44,109 nucleotides of DNA from contig JALHMU010000003.1 in assembly GCA_022843885.1 (NCBI GenBank), forward strand, positions 1 to 44,109. The letters run 5' to 3'. A program made the translations under genes and the position numbers. The stretch comes from Candidatus Peribacteraceae bacterium. GTDB taxonomy: Bacteria > Patescibacteriota > Gracilibacteria > Peribacterales > Peribacteraceae. Below, one piece after another: positions 5,721 to 41,663 of this stretch (position 1 is its first letter; the number at the start of each line of letters is the position of its first letter). The notes beneath the pieces were generated by a model. It was not told the DNA's origin. It ran no database searches and saw only the letters and a program-made list of their open reading frames with translations.

Positions 5721-7061
5721 TTATGCCAAGAAACCGATACGACGTTCATCTGTGCGCGCAATGTCATCATCCAGTGCGAGCACGCGTTCAACGGCATCGA
5801 TGCACTGCTTGCTCACACTCTCGCCGTACAACTTCGGCGCTGCTTTCATCTCTGCATTATTCCATGCGAATTCAATCGCAGATTTCACGATGCTCGGATT
5901 GATCGGTGGTGCGAGAACATTGCCGCCGGACATAAGTGATTCACTGCGATCAGAACCAAAACGTAACGTGACACACGGCACACCGAGGACATTCATTTCT
6001 TCCTGCATCGAACCGGAATCCGTCGCACAGACAGCGGCTTTTGCCATGGCGGCAATCACATCGCCGTATTCAGGCCACACGGGTGAATAGATGAAATTCG
6101 GGAGTTTCGCGAGCTCTTCGACTTCTTTGCGCAAATTAAAACGATCAAACGCAGCTTCGGTTTGGAACATCGAAATCAGCAGCACATTCTTGCCGCTTTG
6201 AATCATGTCTTTCATTGCAGTGAAGATCGCTTTGAATCGAACTTCCGATAAACAGTTCTCGCGACGGTGAATACAGAAGCGAACGAAGTTACCATCTTTC
6301 AAGAGTGGATACTTTTCAAAAATTTTCGAATCCTTCGCAACTTTCAATGCAGTTTTGGTCGCGTCAGAGACAGAGTTTCCAACGACGAAAATACGATCTG
6401 TGGCATACCCTTCTGCAAGCAAGAACTCTTGATCCAGCGCGACGGGTGCCAAGTGAATGCCGCTCGCAGCCTCGCTTGCGCGTGTGTTGAACTGCTCCGG
6501 ATACGGCTCTTGGCTGCCACGCTCATAGTTCTTACGATCCATCAAAAACCCTCTCCACTTCGCCATGTCCATGGTCGTTGTCGACAATTTAAATGTCGGA
6601 TCAAATTCAAAGTACTTCGGTGTGAGCGTGCGAATACCAGCTTCGACGTGCACCGATGGGAAGCCGTGGCAGAAAGCCGCATTGCTGGCTGCCATCGCAG
6701 TGGTTGTATCACCGTGCACATACGGGATGACAATCTTCCCGAGCGACTTCATGTGTCCGATCACCTCTCCGAGTCGTGCGATAATTTGAGAGACGACTTC
6801 ATGCATCTCTCCTCGAACATTTAAGTTGAAATCCGGAACAACACCGAATTCTTTTAGCATTCCCCCGCTCAAATTTTCATCGTAATGCTGACCAGTGTGA
6901 CCCAAAATGACTTCATGTGAACGGTCCTTCAGCTCTTTGTAGAGCGGAATCTGTTTAATGATGTCAGGTTTCGTGGCAATCAGAATCAAGTGAACCTGGC
7001 GGTAAGGCCGTGATTCAATTTCTTCGTAGAAACGATCTGATGCAAAGGTGATGTCAGACAT
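5721..7061 (-). CDS. wecB: UDP-N-acetylglucosamine 2-epimerase (non-hydrolysing)
   Basis: ATKPDIIK, HTGQHYD, VHGDTTT, HVEAGIRT, HRREN and TDSGSMQEE motifs. Confidence 0.93.
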   Translation of the reverse strand: MSDITFASDRFYEEIESRPYRQVHLILIATKPDIIKQIPLYKELKDRSHEVILGHTGQHYDENLSGGMLKEFGVVPDFNLNVRGEMHEVVSQIIARLGEVIGHMKSLGKIVIPYVHGDTTTAMAASNAAFCHGFPSVHVEAGIRTLTPKYFEFDPTFKLSTTTMDMAKWRGFLMDRKNYERGSQEPYPEQFNTRASEAASGIHLAPVALDQEFLLAEGYATDRIFVVGNSVSDATKTALKVAKDSKIFEKYPLLKDGNFVRFCIHRRENCLSEVRFKAIFTAMKDMIQSGKNVLLISMFQTEAAFDRFNLRKEVEELAKLPNFIYSPVWPEYGDVIAAMAKAAVCATDSGSMQEEMNVLGVPCVTLRFGSDRSESLMSGGNVLAPPINPSIVKSAIEFAWNNAEMKAAPKLYGESVSKQCIDAVERVLALDDDIARTDERRIGFLA

Positions 7062-7099
7062 GCCAAAAGAGAGTATCCGATTTTCCCGAAAAGCGGAAT

Positions 7100-7768
7100 C
7101 TAGATACGACCGGTTTCGACCTTCTTCTCGGTCAATGATGCGCCTTGCGTGATGATGCCAGGCACTTCACGGATCTCTTTGTTCGTCATCTTGTCACCGT
7201 CAAAGGTGTAAATGTACGGCGTGCAGAGTCCGATCTCGAGTGAACCAGTTGTGTCATCGTCGAGGTTTTCCAAGTACCTCATGATCGGGCGGAGGCTGTT
7301 GCCGTGTGCCGCGATGATGACGTTCTTGCCAGCTTTAATGTGCGGCATCACGTACTGCATAAAGTATGGCGTCGTGCGACGAACACAGTCTTCGATGCTT
7401 TCACCGTTTGGTGGTCGGCCACTGAAACTTCGGCGCCACTCTTGTACTTTTTCTTTTCCGAACTTCTCTGTCGTTTCAGCTTTATTCAAACCTTGAAGAT
7501 CGCCGTAGTGACGTTCGTTCAATGCTGAATCGTATTCTTTCGGAATCTCTTTGTGACCCATCGATTTCAGGACCGTATCCAACGTGCGGTTCGCACGGAT
7601 CAAACGGGACGAAAACGCGAGGTCAAAACTCAAACCTTTGAGTGCTTCGCCGGTCTTTCCGGCATCTTTTTCACCTTGTTCGGTGAGGGGGACATCAGAC
7701 CAGCCTGTGAAGCGGTTTTCGAGGTTCCACTGGGACTGACCGTGTCGGAGAAGGACGAGAGTAGCCAT
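7100..7768 (-). CDS. gpmA: 2,3-bisphosphoglycerate-dependent phosphoglycerate mutase
   Basis: LLRHGQSQWNLENRFTGW, LNERHYGDLQG, AAHGNSLR. Start set to ATG 7768 (MATLVLLRHG), 8 nt after a TACAGT -10 box. Confidence 0.95.
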   Translation of the reverse strand: MATLVLLRHGQSQWNLENRFTGWSDVPLTEQGEKDAGKTGEALKGLSFDLAFSSRLIRANRTLDTVLKSMGHKEIPKEYDSALNERHYGDLQGLNKAETTEKFGKEKVQEWRRSFSGRPPNGESIEDCVRRTTPYFMQYVMPHIKAGKNVIIAAHGNSLRPIMRYLENLDDDTTGSLEIGLCTPYIYTFDGDKMTNKEIREVPGIITQGASLTEKKVETGRI

Positions 7769-20427: not shown

Positions 20428-21517
20428 ATGGACGAGCTTATCGCAAAAATCACCGACCTTTGCGCCGCTCTGAACACGGGGAAGGACTCTCTTTGAGGCC
20501 CGAAAACTTCCGGAACAAATCAAAGCACTCGAAAAGCAGACAGAAGGTGAAATTTGGGAAGACCAAAAACTCGCTACTCGTATTTTTGGCGAACTCCGAA
20601 TCCTCAAAAAGCTCTGGGAGCCGACAGTCGAAATGAACGATCAAGCCAAAGAACTGTTAGAACTGACAAAAGCATCCGATGAAAAAGATCTTCCTGATTT
20701 GGAGAAAGAATATGACAAGCTCTATACAGCATGGCTCGAATTGGAAAAATCTCTCTACTTAAGTGGGAAGTACGATGCGGGAAATACGTACTTGAGCATC
20801 ACAAGCGGCGCTGGCGGCACGGAAGCACAGGACTGGGCTGCGATGCTCATGCGCATGTATCTACGCTATGCAGAACGCAAAGGGTGGAAGACAGAAATGA
20901 TCGATAAAGCCGATGGTTCCGAAGCAGGAATCAAATCTGCGACGATTCATGTCTCGGGAGATTTTGCGTACGGATATTTGAAGAACGAACGAGGCACACA
21001 TCGTTTAGTTCGACTGTCCCCTTTCAATGCAAAAAGTTTACGACAGACATCATTCGCTCTTGTGGAAGTGTTGCCGGACATGGCCGAACATCATCATGAA
21101 ATTGTTTTGAAGCCGGAAGACTTGCGTGTCGATACCTTCCGTTCCGGTGGTGCCGGCGGACAACACGTGAACAAAACCGATTCAGCCGTGCGCATCACGC
21201 ACTTGCCAACGGGCATCGCAGTTGTGTGTCAGAACGAACGCAGCCAATTGCAAAATCGGGAACGCGCGATGGCACTCCTCAAAGGAAAGTTGCACCAGAA
21301 AGAATTGGAAGAGCAGAAGAAAGAGAAGGATAGCTTGAAGGGAGCAACCAAGAGCGCTGACTTCGGCAGTCAGATCCGTAGCTACGTGCTGCATCCGTAT
21401 CAGATGGTCAAAGACCTCCGTACACACGTAGAAACCAGCGATACGACGGGCGTGCTGGATGGTGACCTCGATGCATTCGTCGAAGCTGAACTGAAACGCT
21501 CAAGCAAAGAATTGTAA
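20428..21517 (+). CDS. prfB: Peptide chain release factor 2 with programmed +1 frameshift (about 362 aa)
   Basis: ORF0 from ATG 20428 ends CTT TGA (20491-20496); the +1 frame from 20495 is open into the 20633 ORF carrying GGTEAQDW, the SPF specificity motif and GGQ. Confidence 0.97.
20483..20497 (+). promoter_or_regulatory. prfB +1 ribosomal frameshift site
   Basis: AGGAC TCT CTT TGA G: SD-like purines just upstream of the CTT-TGA slip/stop. Confidence 0.9.
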
Positions 21518-21559: not shown

Positions 21560-22033
21560 ATGACCAACCTGATCTTCAAAAGCAGGAAATGGTGGAAAAG
21601 TGATTGGGATTTGTATGCAGGAGAAAAAGTGATCGGTTCTTTCAGCATGAAGGGCTGGTCGTACACACGTGCCGCCGTACACATCGGAACAAAGCAGTTT
21701 GAAATTACGTACAAAGGATGGAGTGGAAATCGAACGCAACTGTGCGATGCATCGGGCAAAGAAATCGCAACGGCAGAGCCGATAAATTTTTGGGGGACGA
21801 GAGTAGAAATACGGCTTCATGGGAGAAAATACATTCTGACGACATCTGGATGGATGACACACTTCCTTGCAATGGACGAACAAGGTCATGAGCTCGTACG
21901 GCTTAAGGACCGTTGGTGGAGCAACACCTTCGATGTCACGATCAAAAATCCCGATGCAGAAGTGGAACTCCTTTTAGCATTCCTCCTCCTCTATCGAGGG
22001 ATCCAAATGAGAGCAGCGTCCTCTGGGACGTAG
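21560..22033 (+). CDS. Hypothetical Trp-rich beta-strand protein (possibly LURP-one/tubby-C-like)
   Basis: TATACT 6 nt before ATG; repeated beta-hairpin units (WW/GW motifs) and a terminal hydrophobic helix (ELLLAFLLLY). Confidence 0.7.
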   Translation: MTNLIFKSRKWWKSDWDLYAGEKVIGSFSMKGWSYTRAAVHIGTKQFEITYKGWSGNRTQLCDASGKEIATAEPINFWGTRVEIRLHGRKYILTTSGWMTHFLAMDEQGHELVRLKDRWWSNTFDVTIKNPDAEVELLLAFLLLYRGIQMRAASSGT

Positions 22034-22034
22034 T

Positions 22035-22096
22035 ATTCGACTCGTCTATAAATAGTTGGTGGCTTGCCATGAGCGAGCACGTAGTGCGAGTCGAAT
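22035..22096. repeat. About 62-bp element bounded by a perfect 10-bp inverted repeat, abutting the tRNA 3' end
   Basis: ATTCGACTCG (22035-22044) / CGAGTCGAAT (22087-22096); internal GCAC-GTA-GTGC hairpin. Confidence 0.55.
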
Positions 22097-22185
22097 GGCG
22101 GAGAGAGAGGGATTCGAACCCTCGATTCCCGTAAGGGAATACACGATTTCGAGTCGTGCGCTTTCGACCACTCAGCCATCTCTCC
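22096..22185 (-). tRNA. tRNA-Ser (anticodon CGA)
   Basis: Reverse complement GGAGAGATGGCTGAGTGGTCGAAAGCGCACGACT-CGA-AATCGTG, long variable arm, GGTTCGAATCCC T-arm, G discriminator, encoded CCA; 90 nt. Confidence 0.97.
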
Positions 22186-22230
22186 GTAAAGCCTGCAGAT
22201 TCTACACTGATCTATCGTGGAATGTGAGCC

Positions 22231-22276
22231 AAGAAAAGTGCCTCCTCCCATCAAAGAATATGATGAGAGGAAGCAC
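22231..22276 (-). terminator. Intrinsic terminator downstream of the 29-aa ORF
   Basis: Minus-strand GUGCUUCCUCUCAUCA-loop7-UGAUGGGAGGAGGCAC then UUUUCUU; the two non-Watson-Crick positions are G.U only on the minus strand. Confidence 0.8.
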
Positions 22277-22297
22277 AGGTGGGAAGATCAGGCGGAA

Positions 22298-22387
22298 TTA
22301 GGCACAGAGCCTTTTCGGAGACCGATTTTTTGGATAGCTGATTTTTTTCTTCGGTTTCGGATAGGCCAATTTCCTCGACTTTGCCAT
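22298..22387 (-). CDS. Small very basic protein, 29 aa (MAKSRKLAYPKPKKKISYPKNRSPKRLCA)
   Basis: GAAGGAGG SD 5 nt before ATG 22387; upstream promoter, downstream terminator; 11 K/R and no acidic residues. Confidence 0.6.
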   Translation of the reverse strand: MAKSRKLAYPKPKKKISYPKNRSPKRLCA

Positions 22388-22397
22388 GAGATCCTCC

Positions 22398-22463
22398 TTC
22401 CGCTCAGAGATGAGGTGAACCGATCCGATCGGTTCGTTTGTAGACCTCAGAAAAAGAGCGGAA
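22398..22463 (-). promoter_or_regulatory. Long nested stem-loop in the 5' leader of the 29-aa ORF
   Basis: UUCCGCUC/GAGCGGAA outer stem, UGAGGU/ACCUCA middle stem, GAACCGAU/AUCGGUUC inner stem; its 3' foot runs into the SD. Confidence 0.7.
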
Positions 22464-22478
22464 TACCAAAGTACGCCA

Positions 22479-22575
22479 GATTCTATATATGTGCAATGCG
22501 ACACAAAATTGATATTGTGCAACGAAGGGAAGGGGGTACCATAATGCAAATTGTTCTTTGCATCTTTCTAGAATC
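22479..22575. promoter_or_regulatory. Divergent promoter pair sharing TTGCA-N6-TAGAATC
   Basis: Minus copy at 22496-22479 and plus copy at 22558-22575; an ATGCAAA-N6-TTTGCAT palindrome overlaps the plus copy. Confidence 0.55.
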
Positions 22576-22599
22576 AGAAGGAATTGGAGGGAATTTTCT

Positions 22600-22674
22600 A
22601 TGAATTTCGTCCGCTTCTTTTTCAGCTGCAGGGTGCAGTTGGCAAGCATGGACACTAGCTTTAGGAGTGTGTAA
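22600..22674 (+). CDS. Putative 24-aa Phe-rich leader peptide/uORF (MNFVRFFFSCRVQLASMDTSFRSV)
   Basis: GGAGG at 22586-22590, ATG 22600; its TAA directly abuts the ATG of the 54-aa ORF (GTG TAA ATG). Confidence 0.4.
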   Translation: MNFVRFFFSCRVQLASMDTSFRSV

Positions 22675-22839
22675 ATGAGTGGTCACTATCAGAAGCAAGG
22701 TGGTGCGAAACGCAGTCGTAACTGGAAGAAACGCGTGGAACGCGGAAGGGCTGGTAATCGTACGGCCAAAGTGATCAAAGAGCAGCAAAAACTGCTCCTG
22801 CAGCAGAGGAAACAAGAAGCAATCGAGGCGGCTGCCTAG
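22675..22839 (+). CDS. Small basic protein, 54 aa (MSGHYQKQGGAKRSRNWKKRVERGRAGNRTAKVIKEQQKLLLQQRKQEAIEAAA)
   Basis: AGGAG SD 7 nt before ATG; 15 K/R; followed by a textbook terminator; below the ORF-track size cutoff. Confidence 0.7.
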   Translation: MSGHYQKQGGAKRSRNWKKRVERGRAGNRTAKVIKEQQKLLLQQRKQEAIEAAA

Positions 22840-22858
22840 TTTGGTAGCTATCTCGAAT

Positions 22859-22892
22859 CACGCCTGGGGTTTATCCCCGGGCGTGTTTTTTT
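22859..22892 (+). terminator. Intrinsic terminator downstream of the 54-aa ORF
   Basis: CACGCCTGGGG-TTTAT-CCCCGGGCGTG followed by T7. Confidence 0.9.
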
Positions 22893-22909
22893 GGCGTATA
22901 ATTTCTTCG

Positions 22910-24160
22910 ATGAAATCGAATGCTGAACATTCGGCAGATCTTACTATCGTCGGTGCCGGAGCAGCCGGGATCGAAGCCGCAAAAATCGCACAAGAAAATG
23001 GAGCACGTGTCATTCTGCTAGAGGGAAACGACCGACCGCATGGACGCATCAATACGGATAGTCATTTCGTCGAACATGGTGCGGAATTCCTTCATGGAGT
23101 ACAAAGTAAAACGTGGGAACACGTAAAAGAATACGGTCTGACAACCATCTCCGATGGAGACGTCAAAAATAGCTACGTCTATATGGAGGGGAAGGTGCAA
23201 AAGAACAATCAATGTGAAATTCTTATCGCCAAGATCCGTGAAAAAGCACGTGAACATCTATCAACGAAAGGCGAAACAAGTGCCGACCGTATTATCAAAC
23301 AAGTATTACATAATCTCGATATTCCTGAAGAATTGAAGAGCACCATCCGCGGAGCGATCGAAAGTGAATATGGTGCGAGACTCAGAAATTTAGGTCTGCC
23401 GGGATTACAGGAACCGTCGAGTTTTGAAGAAGAGAATTTTCGCTTAGAAGAGGGTTATTCCGCACTTTTACAACGCATGTCGGAAGGCCTCGATATACGC
23501 TTACATCAAAATGTGCAGCGTATCGATTGGGGAAACGATGTCGAGCTCACAACGGGAACAGGAGAAACATTTCGTTCCAAAGGAGTTATCAGTACCATCC
23601 CTGCTGGGATTCTCAAGCAGCAACCGGATCTCTTTATGAAACCATTGCCACCAGAAAAAATAGAAGCGTTCGGAAGAATAGGAGTTGGCGAAGTTTGGAA
23701 AATTATCGCGACATTCCGGAAGCGTATTTGGAAGGAAGATATGGCCGTGCTACGAACACCACTTCTGACACAGGTATGGTGGCCGGCACATTGGGGTCGC
23801 TCAAAACCTGCACCCATCCTCACAGCGCTCATCGGTGCAAATGGCGTGAAGAAATTTGGGCAGTCGGAAGATGAGGCATCACGAATTGCCTTTGAGGAAT
23901 TGAAGCTCATGTTCGGCGCATCAAAGGTAGAAAACGCATTAGAAAATATCGATGTTATTCCGTGGACACTCGATCCACATATTCGCACCGGCTATTCGTA
24001 TCTTCCGCCTCATGCGAATGGCATTCGAAAAACATTGGCTGAGCCTGTCGACGGCAAGCTTTTCTTTGCAGGAGAAGCAACCGATCCGGAAGCCGGGACC
24101 GTGCACGGTGCATTCAACAGCGGCGAACGCGCAGCGCTTGAATTCTTGCGATCAAGTTAA
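22910..24160 (+). CDS. Flavin-containing amine oxidoreductase (monoamine oxidase family)
   Basis: VGAGAAGIEAA dinucleotide-binding motif, EHGAEFLHG, LFFAGEAT, GTVHGAFNSGERAA. Start set at ATG 22910, 7 nt after TATAAT and after the terminator. Confidence 0.9.
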   Translation: MKSNAEHSADLTIVGAGAAGIEAAKIAQENGARVILLEGNDRPHGRINTDSHFVEHGAEFLHGVQSKTWEHVKEYGLTTISDGDVKNSYVYMEGKVQKNNQCEILIAKIREKAREHLSTKGETSADRIIKQVLHNLDIPEELKSTIRGAIESEYGARLRNLGLPGLQEPSSFEEENFRLEEGYSALLQRMSEGLDIRLHQNVQRIDWGNDVELTTGTGETFRSKGVISTIPAGILKQQPDLFMKPLPPEKIEAFGRIGVGEVWKIIATFRKRIWKEDMAVLRTPLLTQVWWPAHWGRSKPAPILTALIGANGVKKFGQSEDEASRIAFEELKLMFGASKVENALENIDVIPWTLDPHIRTGYSYLPPHANGIRKTLAEPVDGKLFFAGEATDPEAGTVHGAFNSGERAALEFLRSS

Positions 24161-39942: not shown

Positions 39943-41663
39943 ACGATGGAAATTCCATTTTGATTGTAGATCTCTTTTCCATGTGACTTCAGTGTTTGCC
40001 AATTCGCAGTATCGATATCTTTTGCTGTACGAATGATGAAATCGAGTGGATAGAGTGCGAGTTTTTCTTCGGTGGAGAGTTGTAGATACTCTTCGTAAGC
40101 TTCGATTTGCTGATCAATAATGTCATCAGGAATATTCTCGTATCCACCAGCAAATTCACGATAGTAAATGCTATACAAACGACTGCTCACGAACGCGCGC
40201 AAGTCAGTTGGGAAGCGCTCTGTAGCCTCAGCGAGCGACAGATCTTCTAACCACAATTCAAAGAACATTGCGTCCCTGGCTCGCGTGGTTGGTGTGAGGT
40301 ATCCATTCGCATTTCCGGCCATATACGCACTCAACGGCGTATATACCGTAATCAAATCACGTGCATGCGCATTTTCTTTGCTAATGAAAACGACTTGTCC
40401 TTTCGTTCCAATGGAAGACAGTTCCTCGAAGACAGGTGCGTAGATCTGATACGCATCCCATTCTGCTTCACTGGCGTTGTAGGCATGCATCTGTTGCATG
40501 TATCCAAAGCCGATTGTTCCAATACAGAGAATAATTCCGAGGAGCACCTGCACGTTTCGTGTTGTAAAGCGGGAGATGCCGAAGAAGATCAGGGTTAGAA
40601 TAAGGAGTGCTGCGAGCGGCTGAATGAAATACCAATGATAATGCTGAAAGACGATCGCAGTGCCGGTAATCAGTTGTTGATTCAGTGCAATCAAGCCTGC
40701 AATCGCAAGTGCTGGCACAAGCGGCCATGTGGCCGGAAGCATTTTCCTTGTCGGAAGAGACGCAACAATGAAAGCCACTGCATACGCACCGAAGACTGCG
40801 AAGCGTTTATGAATGAGACCTTGTCGCGCGGCTGTTTCCGCATACAACGGATGATGGGCCAATTCCCACATATTGATGAGATAGGGAATACCCAACAAAA
40901 AGAACCACGCAAAAATGATGCCAATATCGGAGATGCGCATCCATTCCCTTTTCCAGAAATACCAAAGAAACAACAATCCGAGGGTCGCTGCCAAATAGGA
41001 CCATGCATACACATACGAATAGAGCATCACAGCCATACAGATGCCGATCAAACTTGCTTTCCAGGTTGCACGCTGCTTGATCCAAGAAGCCAAGATCCAC
41101 AGCGCCAAGAAGAACCATGTCGCACTCCACTGCGGATTGATGGGGCGGGCGAAGCGAAGGAAATCACTTGAGAAAATGCCTGTTTCAAGAAATTTCAGAA
41201 TGTCCCACGGCGCATTCAATGCAGCATTCGCAAACAACAACGTACATACCGCGACAATGCTCAGCCACGGCTTCTTTGTGATGGACGTCCATGCTCCAAT
41301 CATGACAATCGTGAGCAGCACTCCAAAGAAAAACTTGGAAACCGTGAAGGATGTAAGCGCATTCAAACCAAACAAGCGTCCAATCCAATAGATCGTTGCT
41401 TCGGGAACTGCTGGCTGCAGATAGGGCTGATCTTTTGGCTCACTGTAGTACTGATTCGCAACAGGCCAGTCACCTTGTTCGACCGAAACCACTCTCCCGC
41501 CATAATAAAATTCTTGATCGGTGCCCATTATCACGATGCCATCGAATGAATCGTCGAATCTCTGAAGAATATTCGGCAGTACACATGCTGCCCCAAAGAA
41601 TGTGGCGATCAGAAGTGCCACGATCCATTGTGTGCGCGGGAAAGAAAAATCTGCTTTACGCAT
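39927..41663 (-). CDS. Large polytopic membrane protein, possible GT-C/oligosaccharyltransferase-like
   Basis: Start ATG 41663 overlapping the upstream GT2 stop; TDQEFYY in the first loop, many TM helices, soluble C-terminal domain. Confidence 0.65.
   Translation of the reverse strand: MRKADFSFPRTQWIVALLIATFFGAACVLPNILQRFDDSFDGIVIMGTDQEFYYGGRVVSVEQGDWPVANQYYSEPKDQPYLQPAVPEATIYWIGRLFGLNALTSFTVSKFFFGVLLTIVMIGAWTSITKKPWLSIVAVCTLLFANAALNAPWDILKFLETGIFSSDFLRFARPINPQWSATWFFLALWILASWIKQRATWKASLIGICMAVMLYSYVYAWSYLAATLGLLFLWYFWKREWMRISDIGIIFAWFFLLGIPYLINMWELAHHPLYAETAARQGLIHKRFAVFGAYAVAFIVASLPTRKMLPATWPLVPALAIAGLIALNQQLITGTAIVFQHYHWYFIQPLAALLILTLIFFGISRFTTRNVQVLLGIILCIGTIGFGYMQQMHAYNASEAEWDAYQIYAPVFEELSSIGTKGQVVFISKENAHARDLITVYTPLSAYMAGNANGYLTPTTRARDAMFFELWLEDLSLAEATERFPTDLRAFVSSRLYSIYYREFAGGYENIPDDIIDQQIEAYEEYLQLSTEEKLALYPLDFIIRTAKDIDTANWQTLKSHGKEIYNQNGISIVQFAR

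Follow-up and report, generated by a model that had tools for sequence, protein, structure and literature searches.

Two divergent mini-units, one with a probable orphan microprotein gene, in a variable spot beside tRNA-Ser(CGA) of a Candidatus Peribacteraceae genome

In the genome of a small groundwater bacterium, a member of the Candidatus Peribacteraceae (assembly GCA_022843885.1; 861 kb, 66% complete) a gap of 724 bp (22186-22909) separates the gene for tRNA-Ser(CGA) from a gene encoding a flavin amine oxidase. The window, that is the whole stretch of DNA analysed, comprises 44,109 nt of contig JALHMU010000003.1, and the gap was read within the region 21900-23200. The gene order is prfB (+), an unannotated open reading frame (ORF) here called hyp157 (+), tRNA-Ser(CGA) (-), the gap and the amine oxidase gene (+). 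Two short units lie back to back in the gap, one on each strand, and the anatomy that an earlier sequence-only reading had described for both of them (ORFs, Shine-Dalgarno (SD) sequences, leaders and terminators) was found in place throughout. We suggest that the right-hand unit probably carries a real orphan gene of 54 codons (ORF54) and that the left-hand unit, with an ORF of 29 codons (ORF29), may be a structured small RNA or encode a poorly translated peptide. The features of the two units and of their boundaries are the following, where all folds are single-sequence predictions and MFE stands for minimum free energy.

Left unit, minus strand:
22480..22485 (-), TAGAAT -10 hexamer with a poor -35, missed by the consensus promoter scan
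22399..22462 (-), leader hairpin of 64 nt ending at the SD, outer stem UUCCGCUC/GAGCGGAA, a palindrome, in the MFE and centroid folds
22393..22400 (-), SD GAAGGAGG, 5 nt ahead of the ORF29 ATG
22387..22298 (-), ORF29, 29 codons plus TAA, reading MAKSRKLAYPKPKKKISYPKNRSPKRLCA, with 11 K/R, no D/E and an isoelectric point (pI) of 10.9
22281..22288 (-), anti-SD-like GAUCUUCC just 3' of the ORF29 stop, MFE and centroid prediction
22276..22238 (-), terminator with a 16-bp stem, 7-nt loop and TTTTCTT tail, -27.1 kcal/mol

Right unit, plus strand:
22569..22574 (+), TAGAAT -10 hexamer with a poor -35, missed by the consensus promoter scan
22600..22674 (+), upstream ORF of 24 codons (uORF24), preceded by GGAGG at 22586-22590 with a 9-nt spacer
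22613..22647 (+), 5' arm of a predicted long-range helix, an inverted repeat pairing with 22782-22820 in the MFE and centroid folds
22663..22667 (+), SD AGGAG, 7 nt ahead of the ORF54 ATG
22675..22839 (+), ORF54, 54 codons plus TAG, with 15 K/R, 4 D/E, a net charge of +10.6 and pI 11.4
22782..22820 (+), corresponding 3' arm, which lies within the 3' part of ORF54, MFE and centroid prediction
22859..22892 (+), terminator with stem and loop at 22859-22885 (11 bp, 9 of them GC pairs, 5-nt loop) followed by T7, -22.7 kcal/mol

Boundaries:
22096..22185 (-), tRNA-Ser(CGA), left boundary, found by ARAGORN and by the Rfam tRNA model (63.6 bits)
22910..24160 (+), flavin amine oxidase, right boundary, PF01593 (E 1.1e-47)

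The evidence that carries the reading of ORF54 as a gene is its codon usage. A table of codon log-odds was trained on 344 long ORFs of the assembly, and scores were compared with two null sets, namely 2533 ATG-to-stop ORFs of 25-60 codons lying in the wrong frame or antisense, and 2000 stop-free dinucleotide shuffles of the frame in question. ORF54 scored 0.238, which is the level of in-frame 54-codon chunks of real genes (0.231 +/- 0.135), and only 0.16% of the off-frame and antisense ORFs (-0.299 +/- 0.210) reached this score. Against its own shuffles ORF54 gave a z of 2.55 (p 0.0015); it is the highest-scoring of its six frames and is on a par with prfB (0.29), csrA1 (0.27) and the amine oxidase gene (0.21). 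ORF29 scored -0.118, with p 0.20 against the first null set and 0.80 against its own shuffles. For uORF24, whose TAA immediately adjoins the ATG of ORF54 in a shared frame, the score was -0.407 (p 0.70 and 0.50); its product has a grand average of hydropathy (GRAVY) of 0.44 and is without a long hydrophobic run. On these codon scores ORF54 is probably coding, which upholds it as a protein frame, ORF29 is undecided with a leaning towards non-coding, and uORF24 is probably not a gene. The proposal of a pair of microproteins is therefore not sustained, since neither ORF29 nor uORF24 has a coding signal. The claim that the gap has no credible long ORF does hold once tested, as the mechanical ORFs of 128, 110 and 83 aa that cross it have non-coding scores (-0.37, -0.25 and -0.19, respectively) and are without a Pfam match.

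Both stretches look like self-contained transcription units, as had been proposed, with their SDs, terminators and -10 hexamers. A scan of the whole assembly for hairpins followed by a T-run gave 190 terminator candidates, 25 of them with a free energy (dG) of -20 kcal/mol or lower, and therefore this organism uses intrinsic terminators. The left and right terminators rank 1st (-27.1) and 6th (-22.7 kcal/mol) among these 190. The window was said to contain only two clear intrinsic terminators; among its seven candidates the two of this locus are indeed the only ones with dG <= -20, but a third and weaker hairpin (-18.5) is present at 21998..21950 (-). The left terminator is located between the left unit and the promoter-like site of tRNA-Ser, its stem beginning 21 nt past the ORF29 stop. 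The right terminator starts 19 nt past the ORF54 stop and ends 25 nt before the ATG of the amine oxidase.

The hexamer TAGAAT occurs 171 times in the assembly, counting both strands (0.2/kb). Three copies fall in 22101-22950, all correctly oriented, where 0.17 would be expected in 850 bp (p ~7e-4, Poisson estimate), and they lie roughly at the positions where -10 boxes of the tRNA (22199, -), of the left unit (22480, -) and of the right unit (22569, +) would be expected. Regarding translation signals, the 3' end of the 16S rRNA of this assembly (GGATCACCTCCT, on contig C40) is complementary to both SDs. Strong SDs had been called rare in this DNA, which is roughly right: GGAGG or AGGAG followed by an ATG was found at 338 sites of the genome, and 88 of these open ORFs of at least 80 aa, compared with 808 crude gene calls. 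Small ORFs with such an SD and ATG number 22 in ~82 kb of intergenic DNA versus 106 in ~780 kb of coding DNA, that is about twice the density, so by itself this combination is not rare. Both csrA copies of the assembly have an AAGGAGG SD and a terminator 26 and 30 nt past the stop, a layout like that of both units. An SD, an ORF and a stop ~20 nt before a strong terminator is thus the layout of bona fide small genes in this genome.

Four further small ORFs of 30-60 aa with strong SDs were observed in the assembly, on contigs C31 (5849-5965, +), C15 (8776-8868, -), C17 (10195-10323, +) and C11 (2139-2321, +). Those of 38, 42 and 60 aa have a terminator at most 30 nt from the stop, and that of 30 aa has one ~160 nt downstream. 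Two of the four are basic and one is rich in PKP repeats like ORF29.

Both unit RNAs are predicted to be unusually structured. Folding z-scores were -5.61 (left) and -7.53 (right) with the terminators. Without them they were -3.31 and -4.07, and 0 of 200 shuffles were as stable for either unit. The MFE and centroid predictions for the left unit pair the SD core GGAGGAUC with GAUCUUCC, so that an 8-bp helix would enclose ORF29. In the leader hairpin of the same unit an inner 8-bp stem is predicted to be capped by CGG, which places a GGA motif at the loop edge. When the locus was compared with Rfam 15, only the tRNA reached its cut-off, and the nearest other models were sX6 (20.9 bits, cut-off 40), suhB (17.5, cut-off 41) and ncr1175 (17.5, cut-off 60), all placed over a terminator. 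An identity of the locus with 6S RNA was rejected, as a better candidate exists on another contig. That candidate, at 40641-40795 (+) of contig C1, matches the 6S RNA model of Rfam over its full length (35.3 bits, E 5e-6, cut-off 46.4) and is probably a divergent 6S RNA of this genome.

Single-sequence AlphaFold2 modelling of ORF54 predicted one alpha-helix over residues 11-53 with a mean predicted local distance difference test score (pLDDT) of 87. The composition of the peptide fits the helix prediction, with a basic N-terminal two-thirds and a tail rich in Q, L and A.

No known relative of either peptide was found, and in the sequence-only reading neither had been recognised. Profile searches of Pfam-A, NCBIfam, PHROGs and PADLOC returned no family for ORF29. 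For ORF54 there was none in Pfam, NCBIfam and PADLOC with E up to 10, and PHROGs gave only an Rz-like spanin (E 0.07) and phrog_12554 (E 8.3). Among PDB sequences the best match of ORF54 had E 0.36 and chains of ribosome entries appeared only at E 0.92 and 1.2, and ORF29 had no match. The sole match of ORF54 was itself both among 5.8 billion protein clusters and, with full HMMER, among 1.84 billion representatives. In the ESM Atlas its recognition is low (1490) and the nearest clusters are hypotheticals (0.89-0.90). Searches of metagenome and viral contigs with ORF54, and of metagenome and genome contigs with the amine oxidase, returned nothing. The titles and abstract openings returned by a full-text literature search include nothing on small proteins of Peribacteria or on orphans of the candidate phyla radiation (CPR).

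No RNA sequencing run containing the stretch was found. Four DNA runs from drinking water and groundwater, belonging to two studies, contain pieces of 169-233 nt over the locus at a depth of 2-5 and without indels. Two pieces have no substitution and the piece 22702-22870 has two, one of which (22769 A>G) would change K32 to R in ORF54. Since DNA runs of two studies carry such pieces with 0-2 changes, the stretch exists outside the assembly.

The left boundary of the locus is widespread and its surroundings are not. Of 120 other family genomes, 119 have the tRNA-Ser(CGA) gene, and in 21 of the 29 family loci examined it adjoins prfB, in either orientation. The amine oxidase stands beside it in one of the 29 loci (genome G004, 40% identity) and has homologues in 18 of 199 family genomes. 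No match to ORF29 or ORF54 below E 0.07 was obtained in these 29 loci, and a conserved synteny of the units with tRNA-Ser(CGA) is not observed. In the genome closest by prfB (84%) the tRNA is directly flanked by an unrelated gene of 231 aa, with no terminator-like site.

Only one of the 29 tRNA loci, that of genome G170 (locus L044, 44-441, -), shows a unit made of an SD, a small basic ORF and a terminator. There tRNA-Ser is followed in turn by a promoter-like AT-rich stretch, a GGAGG, a basic ORF of 55 aa and a terminator of -22.1 kcal/mol; the 55-aa ORF is unlike ORF54 (E 49) and has no homologue in the protein collection. In G004 (locus L045, 1065-1500) the gap between tRNA-Ser and the oxidase is 436 bp long and contains a basic ORF of 51 aa with a GGAGG on the opposite strand. 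G170 and G004 share one other genus, and their two ORFs, compared by search and by eye, are similar neither to ORF54 nor to one another. The regions upstream of the 18 oxidase homologues contain no recurrent small ORF, and none of these genes is preceded by an SD-led basic ORF with a terminator on the same strand. A conserved link of the locus to tRNA-Ser or to the amine oxidase was rejected on the basis of the 29 tRNA loci and the 18 oxidase homologues. We read the flank as a variable spot at a conserved tRNA, where short lineage-specific units would come and go, and not as a conserved module. Three related genomes with three unrelated basic mini-ORFs in the same tRNA flank hint at a hotspot of small-gene gain and turnover.

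We propose that the locus, a variable spot bounded by tRNA-Ser(CGA) and an accessory amine oxidase gene, contains two independent divergent mini-units specific to this lineage. In the right unit transcription would start from the -10 box and continue through a structured leader of ~95 nt and the SD, ORF54 would be translated and the strong terminator would end the transcript 25 nt before the next gene. The product would be a peptide of 54 residues forming one long and strongly basic helix, perhaps dimerizing through its less charged C-terminal third, and its composition and shape suggest binding to RNA, the ribosome or DNA. The left unit would give a highly structured RNA of ~235 nt in which the 29-codon basic ORF lies behind a perfect SD predicted to be masked by the anti-SD after the stop, so that ORF29 would be translated at a low and regulated level or not at all. 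The very strong left terminator would prevent read-through into the promoter of tRNA-Ser. The analysis shows the sequence features of the two units (ORFs, SDs, terminators and -10 hexamers), their predicted folds, the codon bias of ORF54 and the lack of relatives, and from these we infer that the units are transcribed and translated and that they have a binding activity and an insulating role. The whole explanation, with ORF54 as a real orphan gene and a structured left unit in a variable spot, has in our judgement about an even chance of being correct.

With respect to function, both peptides have a net charge of about +10.5 and GRAVY values of -1.30 (ORF29) and -1.38 (ORF54). Because both are very basic, nucleic-acid or ribosome binding as proposed in the sequence-only reading is a fair guess, but its basis is composition alone. 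A core ribosomal or dormancy role is unlikely because the ORFs, the stems and the DNA are absent from every one of the 199 other family genomes. The idea of joint regulation finds nothing beyond proximity: the two unit RNAs are no more complementary than chance predicts (duplex z 0.11, a value that 51% of shuffles reach) and have no direct repeat of at least 10 nt in common. A lineage-specific accessory nucleic-acid binder is possible and is our working guess.

Several observations weigh against this explanation. ORF29 scores lower than any of the bona fide small genes in the comparison, csrA2 and rubredoxin included (0.04 each, 0.037 or more). The codon test that favours ORF54 is one kind of evidence, taken over 54 codons, and a high AlphaFold2 confidence for a lone helix predicted from a single sequence is weak evidence. 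The proposed binding function has no supporting family, fold or partner. A sigma-70 consensus scan found no full promoter for either unit and only the tRNA site (2 sites, compared with 2.5 +/- 1.5 in shuffles); the promoters claimed for both units thus have their TAGAAT -10 boxes in place but poor -35s, and since the scan recognises neither they are placed by the -10 hexamers alone. Six-frame searches of the 199 other family genomes gave only chance-level matches to ORF54 (best per-genome E 0.0025), and the nine top ones inspected are arginine-rich open frames in unrelated sequence, several without a start codon. For ORF29 the best per-genome E was 0.07. BLASTN of 22186-22909 against 41 and then 200 genomes returned only matches of 18-55 nt (best E 0.0016), seven of which were inspected and lie in unrelated, mostly coding sequence. 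The ORFs, stems and DNA of the locus are therefore without conservation in the 199 other family genomes, and for this reason selection on the frames cannot be shown. The sequence-only reading had held that a lack of conservation in relatives would speak against functional units, and such a lack is what we find; it is however a weak test, as the host is the only member of its genus in the genome collection and the collections searched contain no second genome of the same genus.

An alternative, which we consider unlikely, is that both units are non-coding small RNAs. Their ORFs and SD-like GGAGG motifs would then be incidental or would bind proteins, such as the two CsrA proteins that this organism encodes. 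The unusual structure of both RNAs, with and without terminators, agrees with it, as do the lack of a coding signal in ORF29 and uORF24, the long-range helix that closes each RNA, the predicted pairing of the left SD and the absence of a protein homologue for either ORF. The assembly encodes two csrA genes, and the GGA hairpin of the left leader together with the GGAs of the SD resembles a CACAUUGGAUGUG hairpin beside csrA. Against it, ORF54 has codon usage at the level of real genes (p ~0.0015 in two nulls), the SD spacing is optimal and the stops lie ~20 nt before the terminators as in the real small genes of this genome. Over the units all Rfam models stay below their cut-offs, and conservation is missing at the DNA level too. 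The count of GGA, ~7 in 246 nt and 8 in 318 nt, is about twice the expected ~4 and 5 and falls mostly in stems, a pattern from which Csr sponge RNAs differ.

The comparison with CsrA-controlled leaders and with the Csr and Rsm small RNAs deserves separate mention. The likeness consists of the two csrA genes and of the GGA hairpin of the left leader, ~30 nt before a GGA-rich SD; a GGA hairpin upstream of a GGA-containing SD is the classic two-site layout of CsrA repression. Unlike the known systems, only one or two GGA motifs would be exposed here and no Rfam Csr or Rsm model matches, so the link is one of resemblance.

The units could also be cis-acting leaders, the right one a leader-peptide and terminator attenuator of the amine oxidase and the left one a leader or insulator of tRNA-Ser, which we regard as highly doubtful. 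The right terminator does end 25 nt before the oxidase ATG and the oxidase has no SD of its own, the right unit is co-oriented with the oxidase and the left unit with the tRNA, and in G004 the oxidase homologue (40%) is likewise split from tRNA-Ser by a 436-bp gap with a small basic GGAGG-led ORF. That ORF is however on the opposite strand, and none of the 18 oxidase homologues is preceded by the same-strand arrangement. The ATG of the amine oxidase has a TATAAT 7 nt ahead of it (22897-22902), which suggests that this gene has its own, possibly leaderless, promoter. Furthermore a leader peptide of 54 codons would be long, inspection of the folds by eye showed no convincing antiterminator that could replace the 11-bp stem, and a promoter-like site belonging to the tRNA itself follows the left terminator.

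A further possibility, in our view very unlikely, is that rearrangements at a tRNA hotspot left the gap behind as decayed or neutral DNA, in which the ORFs, SDs and hairpins have no function. The flanks of the tRNA and its orientation relative to prfB vary between genomes, the genes on either side occur sporadically, conservation is absent throughout the stretch, and small ORFs with an SD and ATG are only about twice as dense in intergenic as in coding DNA, all of which would suit such an origin. Against it, a single stretch of 660 bp has two outward-facing terminators that are among the six strongest in the assembly, TAGAAT is enriched (p ~7e-4) and ORF54 shows a codon bias. With 90% of the genome coding, 724 bp of junk would be unusual, and short contigs of two studies carry the stretch with 0-2 changes and no indels.

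A toxin-antitoxin or toxin-antidote pair, of type I or of the protein-protein kind, is extremely improbable: the divergent arrangement, small ORFs, strong terminators and predicted 5'-3' long-range helices that hide or enclose the translation start, of a kind known from the hok and aapA1 mRNAs, would fit, but neither peptide is hydrophobic (GRAVY -1.30 and -1.38), neutralisation by pairing is unlikely because both are basic (pI 10.9 and 11.4), the two units share neither complementarity nor a direct repeat, and PADLOC, Pfam and PHROGs give no match, the best being the Rz-like spanin at E 0.07.

Returning to ORF54 as an orphan gene beside a structured left unit, the locus is of a kind already known, lineage-specific small genes in variable tRNA flanks. 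It resembles the orphan small protein genes of bacteria in that a short ORF stands alone between an SD and a terminator and has no homologue beyond a narrow lineage, in its variable intergenic spot and, for ORF54, in host-like codon usage. It differs in that two such units adjoin each other divergently, their terminators are exceptionally strong, their leaders are heavily folded and only one of them shows a coding signal. Small basic ribosomal or ribosome-associated proteins, such as bS21, bTHX, bS22/SRA, bL34-bL36 and RMF, are alike in size (29-54 aa here), in their extreme content of K and R, in predicted helix or disorder and in strong translation signals. A structural ribosomal protein would be conserved within the family, whereas ORF29 and ORF54 are not, and they have no Pfam, NCBIfam or significant PDB match. 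With type I toxin mRNAs such as hok and aapA1 the left unit shares a small ORF, an SD predicted to be masked by a distal anti-SD, a compact RNA and a strong terminator; unlike them, the peptides here are hydrophilic and have no antisense partner.

One may go further and picture ORF54, and perhaps ORF29, as newly arisen genus-specific microproteins that coat RNA or ribosomes inside an ultra-small CPR cell, with masked SDs and the two CsrA proteins gating their translation and with the tRNA-Ser(CGA) flank of Peribacteria as a cradle in which basic mini-genes arise and replace one another; this is a long shot.

ORF54 has no known relative and so far tells us nothing on function. If expressed, it would be a well-defined protein-coding orphan, with promoter, SD, 54 codons and terminator, in a CPR genome. 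Roughly half of the genes in such genomes have no annotation at all. Its small size and single predicted helix make it easy to synthesise and to assay for binding to RNA, DNA or the ribosome. It should be borne in mind that the layout of SD and terminator alone also marks real small genes such as csrA, and that only one of the three small frames of this locus passes the codon test and none is tied to a function.

The neighbouring genes upstream of the gap, with the promoter-like site of the tRNA, are as follows:
20633-21517 (+), prfB, with PCRF and RF-1 domains
21560-22033 (+), hyp157, an unannotated ORF of 157 aa between prfB and tRNA-Ser(CGA)
22199..22228 (-), promoter-like site of tRNA-Ser, CTCACA-18-TAGAAT, from the consensus scan, with TAGAAT at 22199-22204

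The best named matches of prfB are from Candidatus Peribacteria and Peribacteraceae (64-71% identity), and genomes of the same family reach up to 84%. With these matches the assignment of the host as a Peribacteria-like CPR bacterium is reasonable. It shows the classical arrangement for programmed +1 frameshifting, in which a short frame opened by the ATG at 20430 extends to TCT CTT TGA G at ~20488-20498 and is followed by the long RF2 frame (20430-21517 in all, +; listed from 20633). For hyp157 no match was found in Pfam, NCBIfam, PHROGs or PADLOC, nor in the 21 loci with prfB beside the tRNA; distant homologues (25-28% identity) exist in 5 of 199 family genomes, at other loci. The weaker hairpin at 21950-21998 (-), TTTTTGAT, lies ~100 nt 3' of tRNA-Ser, within the 3' end of hyp157 on the opposite strand, and may be the terminator of tRNA-Ser itself.

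Between the two -10 boxes (22483-22565, +) the motif (G/A)TGCAA occurs at 22491, 22518 and 22545, with a spacing of exactly 27 nt. A 7-bp palindrome, ATGCAAA-N6-TTTGCAT, spans 22545-22564, directly before the right -10 box. The palindrome and repeats might be an operator, or due to chance. No scars of inversion or insertion were seen, and the locus has only short repeats of chance size.

The two csrA genes mentioned above are tandem paralogues on contig C15 (6400-7450, -), at 7281..7087 and 6750..6532, each with its AAGGAGG SD and strong terminator. The first of them, csrA-1, is preceded by a canonical TTGACA promoter, and its leader contains GGA hairpins. A stretch of ~100 nt that separates the two genes has the CACAUUGGAUGUG hairpin, ends in its own terminator (6927-6954) and may be a CsrA-binding RNA.

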